Shown piece after piece: positions 2,048 to 2,201 of a stretch of DNA of 20,368 nt; positions within the stretch are counted from its first letter, which is position 1, and each line of letters starts with the position of its first letter. The translations under genes were made by a program, and so were the position numbers. The DNA lies in IMG/VR virus record IMGVR_UViG_2563366803_000006. One strand, 5' to 3'. The notes under the pieces are model-generated. The model ran no database searches. It saw only the letters and a list, made by a program, of their open reading frames with translations, and was not told the origin of the DNA. Source of the DNA: a virus. Its lineage: Duplodnaviria > Heunggongvirae > Uroviricota > Caudoviricetes.

Positions 2048-2123
2048 GCCGACTTAGCTCAGTAGGTAGAGCAACTGACTTGTAATCAGTAGGTCACCAG
2101 TTCGATTCCGGTAGTCGGCACCA
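2048..2123 (+). tRNA. tRNA-Thr, anticodon UGU
   Basis: 76-nt cloverleaf: acceptor GCCGACT/AGTCGGC, D-arm GCTC/GAGC with GG in loop, anticodon stem ACTGA/TCAGT with loop CTTGTAA, T-loop TTCGATT, encoded CCA end. One A-C mismatch in the T-stem. Confidence 0.9.
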
Positions 2124-2126
2124 TAT

Positions 2127-2201
2127 GCGGGTATCGTATAATGGCTATTACCTCAGCCTTCCAAGCTGATGATGCGGGTTCGATTCCCGCTACCCGCTCC
2201 A
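2127..2201 (+). tRNA. tRNA-Gly, anticodon UCC
   Basis: 75-nt cloverleaf: acceptor GCGGGTA/TACCCGC, anticodon stem TCAGC/GCTGA with loop CTTCCAA, T-arm GCGGG-TTCGATT-CCCGC, encoded CCA end. Begins 3 nt after the tRNA-Thr. Confidence 0.9.

Follow-up and report, generated by a model that had tools for sequence, protein, structure and literature searches.

How did a tRNA-Thr and a tRNA-Gly gene of host type come to lie between an insertion sequence and the lysis genes of a decayed prophage, and what would they do there? The question is raised by the IMG/VR virus record IMGVR_UViG_2563366803_000006, a stretch of 20,368 nucleotides (nt) that was analysed as a whole (the window; positions are counted from its first nucleotide) and that carries the two transfer RNA (tRNA) genes, tRNA-Thr(UGU) and tRNA-Gly(UCC), 3 nt apart at 2048-2201. 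In the reading that we favour, and that we hold to be quite probable, the pair consists of bona fide phage-borne tRNA genes: a host-derived cassette that moves as a mosaic module in the slot between the antiterminator gene Q and the holin gene, that is transcribed late and probably also from a promoter of its own, and that serves codon supply.

Identity and host origin of the tRNA pair

ARAGORN detected exactly two tRNA genes in the window, both on the + strand: tRNA-Thr (2048-2123; anticodon tgt) and tRNA-Gly (2127-2201; anticodon tcc), separated by the spacer TAT (2124-2126). Both also match the Rfam tRNA family RF00005 over the full length of the model (73.8 bits, E = 9e-15 for tRNA-Thr; 65.6 bits, E = 2e-12 for tRNA-Gly; gathering score 29), and their cloverleaf scores place them among the bacterial elongator tRNA genes. 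The initial annotation, made from the sequence alone, had described two well-formed tRNAs with a 3-nt gap and encoded CCA ends, and all of this is confirmed: neither gene is scored as a pseudogene, the scores are far above the gathering score, and the 3' ends read ...GGCACCA in tRNA-Thr and ...CGCTCCA in tRNA-Gly. The identity elements recognised by threonyl-tRNA synthetase are G1:C72, C2:G71, G35 and U36, and those recognised by glycyl-tRNA synthetase are G1:C72, C2:G71, G3:C70, C35, C36 and U73; on reading the sequence, these positions are unaltered in both tRNAs, which would presumably be aminoacylated.

The host reference was the thrU-tyrU-glyT-thrT-tufB locus of Escherichia coli K-12 MG1655. 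On alignment, tRNA-Thr is identical to thrU at 76 of 76 positions and tRNA-Gly is identical to glyT at 73 of 75 positions; the two differences (C6 to T and G66 to A, linear numbering) make up one compensated acceptor-stem pair, C6:G67 changed to U6:A67. An A-C mismatch in the T-stem of tRNA-Thr had been pointed out before and is indeed present (marked 'v' in the cmscan alignment), but it is no peculiarity of the phage: since tRNA-Thr is identical to thrU, the mismatch is a native feature of the host tRNA and no sign of decay.

The host operon, as the source of both sequences, has the same gene order and strand, but it differs from the window in what lies between and around the two genes. Between thrU and glyT the host has 8 nt, tyrU and 116 nt (124 nt of spacers), replaced by TAT in the window; the host nucleotides next to the genes, T behind thrU and AT ahead of glyT, make this TAT compatible with a clean deletion of tyrU and the spacers. 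The comparison indicates that the cassette thrU-TAT-glyT is derived from the host thrU-tyrU-glyT cluster, with tyrU removed. Beyond the two genes, comparison with the MG1655 locus revealed no similarity of the upstream or downstream flanks to the host operon, and neither tyrU between the pair, nor thrT or tufB downstream, nor coaA upstream was found near it. The pair is thus outside the host operon context, as first proposed (no tRNA-Tyr, second tRNA-Thr or tufB nearby), and its proposed phage-borne origin stands as well, the flanks matching prophage and phage DNA on both sides.

Genomic context in the window and in intact relatives

The pair lies between the right end of a copy of the insertion sequence IS1 (966-1733) and an S21-type holin gene that starts at 2978, the location given for it originally. 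Its placement downstream of Q holds in intact relatives, where a Q-like gene is found directly upstream and the lysis cassette downstream, but not in the window itself, from which Q is absent. The intact relatives are E. coli JNEC-KY178, the induced phage vB_EcoS-683R6 and an Escherichia ruysiae locus; their gene order is NinB-like, DUF1364, Q-like antiterminator (phrog_753, E = 3e-79), about 365 bp, tRNA-Thr, tRNA-Gly, about 780 bp, holin. The E. ruysiae locus, the closest among the species-representative genomes, is 99.84% identical to the window over 1733-8484 and has no IS1; the junction of IS1 with the leader had no exact match when these representative genomes were scanned for it. vB_EcoS-683R6 is a complete Rac-type prophage inserted at ttcA, with int 17 kb from the tRNA pair and a whole leader (the region between Q and the holin gene) that is 93% identical to that of the window. 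The pair therefore occupies the Q-to-lysis interval on the late-operon strand, as judged from the holin downstream in the window and the Q-like gene upstream in the relatives; its flanks are phage DNA, and the arrangement also occurs in induced phage genomes.

The loss of Q can be traced to IS1. Compared with three intact loci (L001, which is JNEC-KY178, L002 and L016), the right end of IS1 abuts a point about 38 bp downstream of the Q stop position. There is no target-site duplication at either of the two IS1 copies of the window, and 966-1733 is therefore a deletion or recombination junction. By this sequence comparison, one IS1-associated deletion took the 5' part of the integrase gene intR, the entire early region and Q.

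Distribution and mobility of the cassette

Of 5,426 complete E. coli genomes, 170 contain the leader together with the pair (97-98.8% identity); PGAP labels the two genes tRNA-Thr and tRNA-Gly there, upstream of essD or of a class II holin. The 171-bp pair alone matches 6,579 places in 5,421 genomes; once the copy in the chromosomal operon is subtracted, roughly 1,150 remain. The junction was further sought, as a pattern with any 3-nt spacer, in representative genomes and IMG/VR contigs: it was found three times in E. coli, three times in Shigella flexneri, and also in E. ruysiae, Citrobacter braakii and Enterobacter hormaechei; the viral contigs of IMG/VR that contain it number at least 120. 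Of 130 junction loci, 128 have TAT as the spacer, which argues for a single origin of the module.

The surroundings of the module are diverse. The pair stands alone in 57 loci; in about 61 loci it closes a four-tRNA array, Ile(CAU)-Lys(UUU)-Thr-Gly or Ile(CAU)-Arg(UCU)-Thr-Gly. The Q genes ahead of it belong to three unrelated families (DUF1133, PF03589, PF06530). In phage phi467 stx2f lies upstream of it, in JLK-2012 a tRNA-Asn precedes it, and the LT-II phage SerU-LTIIb has two copies. Measured against the window, homology ends 0-30 nt before tRNA-Thr in 100 of 128 loci and at most 10 nt after tRNA-Gly in 69 of 122 loci; the mobile unit, as mapped in this way, is essentially the two tRNA genes.

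Several variant loci were recorded. In SerU-LTIIb (L006) the tRNA at 1122-1197 has a thrU-derived body with the anticodon TCT (Arg) and changes in the D-arm and anticodon stem, and in two IMG/VR contigs (L087, L130) the Thr slot holds a thrU-derived body with the anticodon TTT (Lys) and A26G. This repeated change of anticodon suggests that a host-derived tRNA may be remodelled inside prophages, the slot being a place where tRNA specificity changes. The second tRNA of two four-tRNA arrays (L004 and L005; 3927-4003 in each) has the same unusual body (5' CCGC/TCAC..., discriminator T), with the anticodon TTT in one prophage and TCT in the other. The annotated tRNA-Thr of JLK-2012 (L141; 3995-4070) shows 11 differences to thrU, and ARAGORN does not detect it; this decayed copy lies beside an intact tRNA-Gly. 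The Thr-TAT-Gly junction in a 423-bp contig of 0.67x coverage from an assembly of the myxobacterium Corallococcus exercitus (NZ_RAVW01000911.1; L018) is most likely contamination. A match in a Morganella phage was discarded, being a Lys(ctt)-Gly pair whose first tRNA has a different body and is a different gene from tRNA-Thr.

Sequence constraint on the two genes

Mismatch per site was calculated over 12 distinct relatives that share the whole leader, with the 37 nt used to find the loci excluded. It amounts to 0.3% in the tRNAs versus 3-7% in the flanking non-coding DNA, which is 10-20 times less variation. The tRNA-Thr of the window is the commonest variant (74 of 135 loci), and its tRNA-Gly is the second commonest (41 of 135 loci), behind the host-identical form.

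The variants of tRNA-Gly largely keep the cloverleaf. They include the change of C:G to U:A at 6:67 (6:66 in linear numbering), with a U.G intermediate in two loci; a change of G:C to A:U at 48:64; and several changes of C to T after which a G.U pair remains. Pairing is broken by two changes only, each in a single locus. When the variants are laid on the cloverleaf, 94.8% of cells are paired, versus 37-54% with slid partners, and three pairs are changed on both sides. Compensatory changes and a low substitution rate, the marks of a maintained structure, are thus found together, and because of them (10-20 times less variation than in the flanks, and stems restored by second changes) we conclude from the alignments that the tRNAs are under selection. 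Phage-specific forms are moreover stable: a D-loop variant of tRNA-Thr, T16C/T20C, is present in 28 loci and the U6:A67 form of tRNA-Gly in more than 41 loci, which argues against simple homogenisation by the host genes.

Proposed transcription and codon supply

According to the favoured explanation, the thrU-TAT-glyT cassette would circulate in the Q-to-holin 'moron' slot of lambdoid prophages in E. coli and its relatives, on the late-operon strand, past Q and the first Q-linked terminator and before further terminators and the lysis genes, a position from which transcription by Q-modified RNA polymerase is expected in the intact relatives. A conserved sigma-70-like promoter that ends 63 nt before the pair would probably add to this transcription. 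The two tRNAs, with CCA already present in the genes, would be freed from the transcript by RNase P, RNase E and 3' exonucleases of the host, and the pair would raise the supply of two minor tRNA species, each with a single host gene, reading ACA (also ACG and ACU) and GGA (also GGG). In the window the prophage is defective, and the pair would be transcribed only from the candidate promoter at 1957-1984 or by read-through, since IS1 removed Q and the presumed Q-dependent promoter.

A hairpin followed by a T tract at 1775-1806 (+ strand; terminator scan) resembles an intrinsic terminator and is the candidate tR' of the Q-controlled late promoter. The same Q is found in four induced phages (666R9, 673R7, 613R10 and 473R12), which have Q and 113 nt in common at about 95% identity; the shared block stops exactly past the hairpin that matches 1775-1806, and unrelated DNA follows up to the holin. 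The Q-cognate promoter and the first terminator probably lie inside this block. In the relatives a weak TTGATT-17-TTCAAT element overlaps the Q stop codon, and it was removed from the window by IS1. We also considered TTGACG (1941) as a Q-dependent late promoter, with the tRNAs in a short transcript like the 6S RNA of lambda, and rejected it because the same-Q phages share only Q and the 113 nt; sharing limited in this way makes it more likely that the Q-cognate promoter lay beside the Q stop codon, in the part that the window lacks.

The candidate promoter of the pair itself, a sigma-70-like TTGCGA-16-TATCAT (1957-1984, + strand; promoter scan), ends 63 nt before tRNA-Thr and is preceded by an AT-rich tract and by TTGACG (1941). 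The diverged leader of SerU-LTIIb has TTGAAA-16-TAATAT, likewise ending 63 nt before the first tRNA. Mismatch over 1941-2047 is 1.3%, versus 3-7% in the neighbouring non-coding DNA. Downstream of the pair, a strong intrinsic-terminator-like hairpin (AACCGCCATATCTGGCGGTT then T8; 2564-2591, + strand; terminator scans) lies about 360 nt past tRNA-Gly and upstream of the holin, with 2.1% mismatch versus 6-8% around it; two weaker terminators follow between this hairpin and the holin. Another promoter-like match, TCGGCA-16-TATAAT at 2115-2142, was dismissed as lying inside the tRNAs. In JNEC-KY178, a 13-nt tandem duplication (GCTCGGTGATATC; 6280-6305, corresponding to 2013-2025 of the window) was seen between the candidate promoter and tRNA-Thr; this duplication of GCTCGGTGATATC is not present in the window, in vB_EcoS-683R6 or in E. 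ruysiae.

For known RNA families Rfam gave sub-threshold matches only in the leader; the STnc370 and STnc240 alignments that we inspected rest largely on terminator hairpins, and we do not count the matches as members. The matches at 1744-1810 (STnc370, 30.4 bits, gathering score 54) and 2398-2593 (STnc100, 22 bits, gathering score 47) end at the terminator hairpins. STnc100 matches are described as frequent near prophage holin genes in a 2026 preprint.

Codon use was compared between the 21 phage genes of the window and a sample of 47 host genes. Both cognate codons are commoner in the phage genes: ACA with 13.6 versus 8.4 per 1000 codons (odds ratio 1.6, p = 0.002) and GGA with 15.6 versus 8.8 (odds ratio 1.8, p = 9e-5), an excess that is not specific to them. 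By enrichment GGA ranks 6th, ACU 7th and ACA 10th among the 61 codons, and ACU may also be read by tRNA-Thr(UGU).

A number of observations weigh against late, selected codon supply. The codons AGG, AGA and ATA are enriched 2.5-6.6 times without a matching tRNA in the phage, and the phage is more AT-rich than the host (47% versus 52% GC), so that the codon signal fits supplementation but is unspecific. In the intact relative, ACA and GGA are enriched more strongly in early than in late genes, a poor fit to purely late expression. The consensus scans behind the promoter assignments gave counts no higher than in shuffled controls. Some copies of the cassette elsewhere are decaying (the JLK-2012 tRNA-Thr, copies without CCA, copies whose anticodon stem is broken), and selection is therefore not universal; the identity to thrU, finally, could be maintained in part through gene conversion.

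Alternative explanations

The strongest competitor of codon supply in the late phase is a lysogenic-conversion cassette, independent of Q, transcribed constitutively from 1957-1984 and ending at 2564-2591. We regard such a unit as possible but not probable on the sequence features, and we are equally hesitant about the corollary that its benefit would go mainly to the host, or to AT-rich horizontally acquired genes, and not to phage late translation. Much of the leader is in keeping with it: the Q-linked block stops at the 1775-1806 hairpin, which leaves the pair outside the minimal Q/PR'/tR' unit; the promoter-like element keeps its 63-nt spacing in two otherwise diverged leaders; 1941-2047 is conserved (1.3% mismatch); and a strong conserved terminator stands downstream of the pair. 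In the window the endpoint of the IS1 deletion spares the whole unit, with both tRNAs in their commonest functional-looking forms, and the stronger enrichment of ACA and GGA in early than in late genes agrees as well. On the other hand, matches in the promoter scan are no commoner than in shuffled sequence, and in other phages the module mostly occurs without this leader (in 100 of 128 loci the breakpoint is 0-30 nt ahead of tRNA-Thr), so that an own promoter is no general property of the cassette. A cassette in the form of a self-promoted unit between the Q-controlled terminator and the second strong terminator, active in the lysogen and in prophages without Q, seems to us slightly more doubtful still; if it exists, the host would gain a second copy of each of two tRNA genes that its chromosome has only once.

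The pair might also be a neutral hitch-hiker or recombination linker, 150 bp of near-universal sequence that would promote exchange between late regions or whose copies would be maintained by gene conversion, the tRNA products being of no consequence. The ends of the tRNA genes are indeed the very points at which homology between otherwise unrelated late regions breaks off, tRNA-Thr does not differ from the host gene, and some copies elsewhere have decayed. This account is nevertheless improbable in view of the stable, common phage variants (U6:A67 in tRNA-Gly, T16C/T20C in tRNA-Thr), which have not been homogenised to the host sequence, of stem changes that are compensatory or G.U far more often than disruptive, and of a per-site variation 10-20 times below that of the flanks.

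Phage tRNAs counter tRNA-cleaving defences in other systems, and the pair could accordingly be spare tRNAs that replace tRNA-Thr and tRNA-Gly cleaved by host defences or toxins such as anticodon nucleases. The cassette does sit in a slot that gathers accessory genes, but we give this idea even less weight: tRNA-Thr is identical to its host counterpart and tRNA-Gly differs only at the acceptor pair 6:67, far from the anticodon loop, so that neither would escape a nuclease recognising the host species and dosage alone could help; nor was a defence system against these two tRNA species identified in this analysis.

tRNA genes are common integration sites. A preprint reads tRNA matches near prophage small RNAs as related to attachment sites (10.64898/2026.05.13.724894). 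For the window, a fragment of the chromosomal thrU-tyrU-glyT-thrT-tufB operon or a tRNA attachment-site remnant is refuted, near-identity to thrU and glyT notwithstanding, by flanks unlike the operon without tyrU, thrT, tufB or coaA, by the completeness of both genes and their internal position in the prophage (with the integrase 17 kb away in the intact relative at ttcA), and by the same arrangement in induced phage genomes. An attachment-site remnant would be a partial or duplicated tRNA 3' end at a prophage boundary beside an integrase, and int is near the tRNAs in the window only because of the IS1 deletion.

Relation to known phage tRNA clusters and significance

The cassette itself is already known: the PGAP annotation of hundreds of genomes includes it, and it has been published for Shiga toxin (Stx) 2f phages. 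All the Stx phages analysed in one study are reported to have tRNA genes between q and stx (PMC7366253), and an Stx2f phage has Thr and Gly tRNAs next to s (PMC7366253, PMC5189129). In the literature we found no dedicated description of a prophage cassette derived from thrU and glyT, passing mentions only.

The same tgt/tcc cassette, with the genes 3 nt apart and upstream of the holin, is carried by the Stx2f phage phi467 (LN997803), vB_EcoS-683R6, JLK-2012 and SerU-LTIIb. phi467 differs in having the pair downstream of stx2f, JLK-2012 in an extra tRNA-Asn and a decayed tRNA-Thr, and SerU-LTIIb in having two copies, one of them with the Thr anticodon changed to TCT; the window copy differs from all four in lying in an IS1-deleted remnant without Q. 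Likeness extends to the ileZ-argN-argO (Ile/Arg/Arg) cluster of the Stx phages 933W and H-19B, which also consists of late-strand tRNAs placed past the Q-proximal terminator in the interval from Q to the lysis genes, and which decodes codons that E. coli uses rarely and the phage uses to excess. In the arrays L004 and L005 the Thr-Gly pair is even fused to the 3' end of Ile-Arg or Ile-Lys arrays of this kind. The pair of the window differs from the ileZ-argN-argO cluster in its specificities (Thr UGU and Gly UCC) and in having no adjacent toxin gene, and from the Ile, Lys and Arg tRNAs of the arrays, which have distinct bodies of their own, in being identical or nearly identical to host genes.

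As tRNA genes are routine in lambdoid late regions, the finding changes little. A modest gain is the picture of a host derivative that has a single origin and has spread as a mosaic unit of about 155 bp, reaching several enterobacterial species and no fewer than three Q families. The U6:A67 pair of tRNA-Gly would further offer a sequence tag by which prophage and host tRNA can be separated in tRNA sequencing, including in lysogens with defective prophages, and the window records how IS1 sculpted a Rac prophage with the tRNA unit left intact.

The prophage around the tRNA pair

The remainder of the window is that of a decayed Rac-type prophage. It begins with the 3' part (309 codons) of the Rac integrase gene intR on the - strand (1-930; PF00589, E = 1.5e-23); the annotated intR genes of many E. 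coli genomes match positions 1-965 at 100% identity, and the 5' part of the gene has been removed at the IS1 junction. The first IS1 copy follows at 966-1733 (+ strand; sequence reading and self-BLAST). It is 99.7% identical to a second copy in direct orientation at 18936-19703 (768 bp, 2 mismatches by self-BLAST), which joins the tail chaperone region to the 3' end of a tail fibre gene; here a second IS1-associated deletion took part of the tail module.

Between the first IS1 copy and the holin, small open reading frames in 1734-2980 are short and overlap the tRNAs or terminators. The holin, of S21 type (class II; 2978-3193, + strand; PF04971, E = 4.8e-35), is the first gene of the lysis cassette and marks the downstream end of the Q-S interval; it is named essD or class II holin in the annotation of the relatives. 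After it come a DUF1327/YdfR-like gene, lysozyme, Rz and trkG, and beyond trkG a ParB-like gene, a TAGT-family glycosyltransferase, the terminase subunits, and portal, head, connector and tail genes. The YdfR-like gene and the lysozyme gene are about 340 bp apart (gap at 3543-3885), and in relatives a small hypothetical open reading frame is annotated there on the opposite strand.

The Rac prophage of E. coli K-12 belongs to the same family (intR and trkG; the ttcA attachment site in the intact relative). We take K-12 Rac to have lost the Q-to-lysis segment and hence to be without the tRNA cassette; what IS1 removed from the window copy is instead the early region together with a part of the tail region. 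As in K-12 Rac, the potassium transporter gene trkG (5000-6475) lies between Rz and the packaging genes, and it has the highest combined counts of ACA and GGA among the late-region genes (10 and 13). The gene for a protein with a ParB N-terminal domain (6613-7404) overlaps that of a TET-associated glycosyltransferase (7376-8329; PF20691, E = 3e-35), which also matches phrog_842, 'beta-glucosyl-HMC-alpha-glucosyltransferase'; the two genes lie directly ahead of the terminase genes and may serve Rac-type phages as a DNA-modification module.

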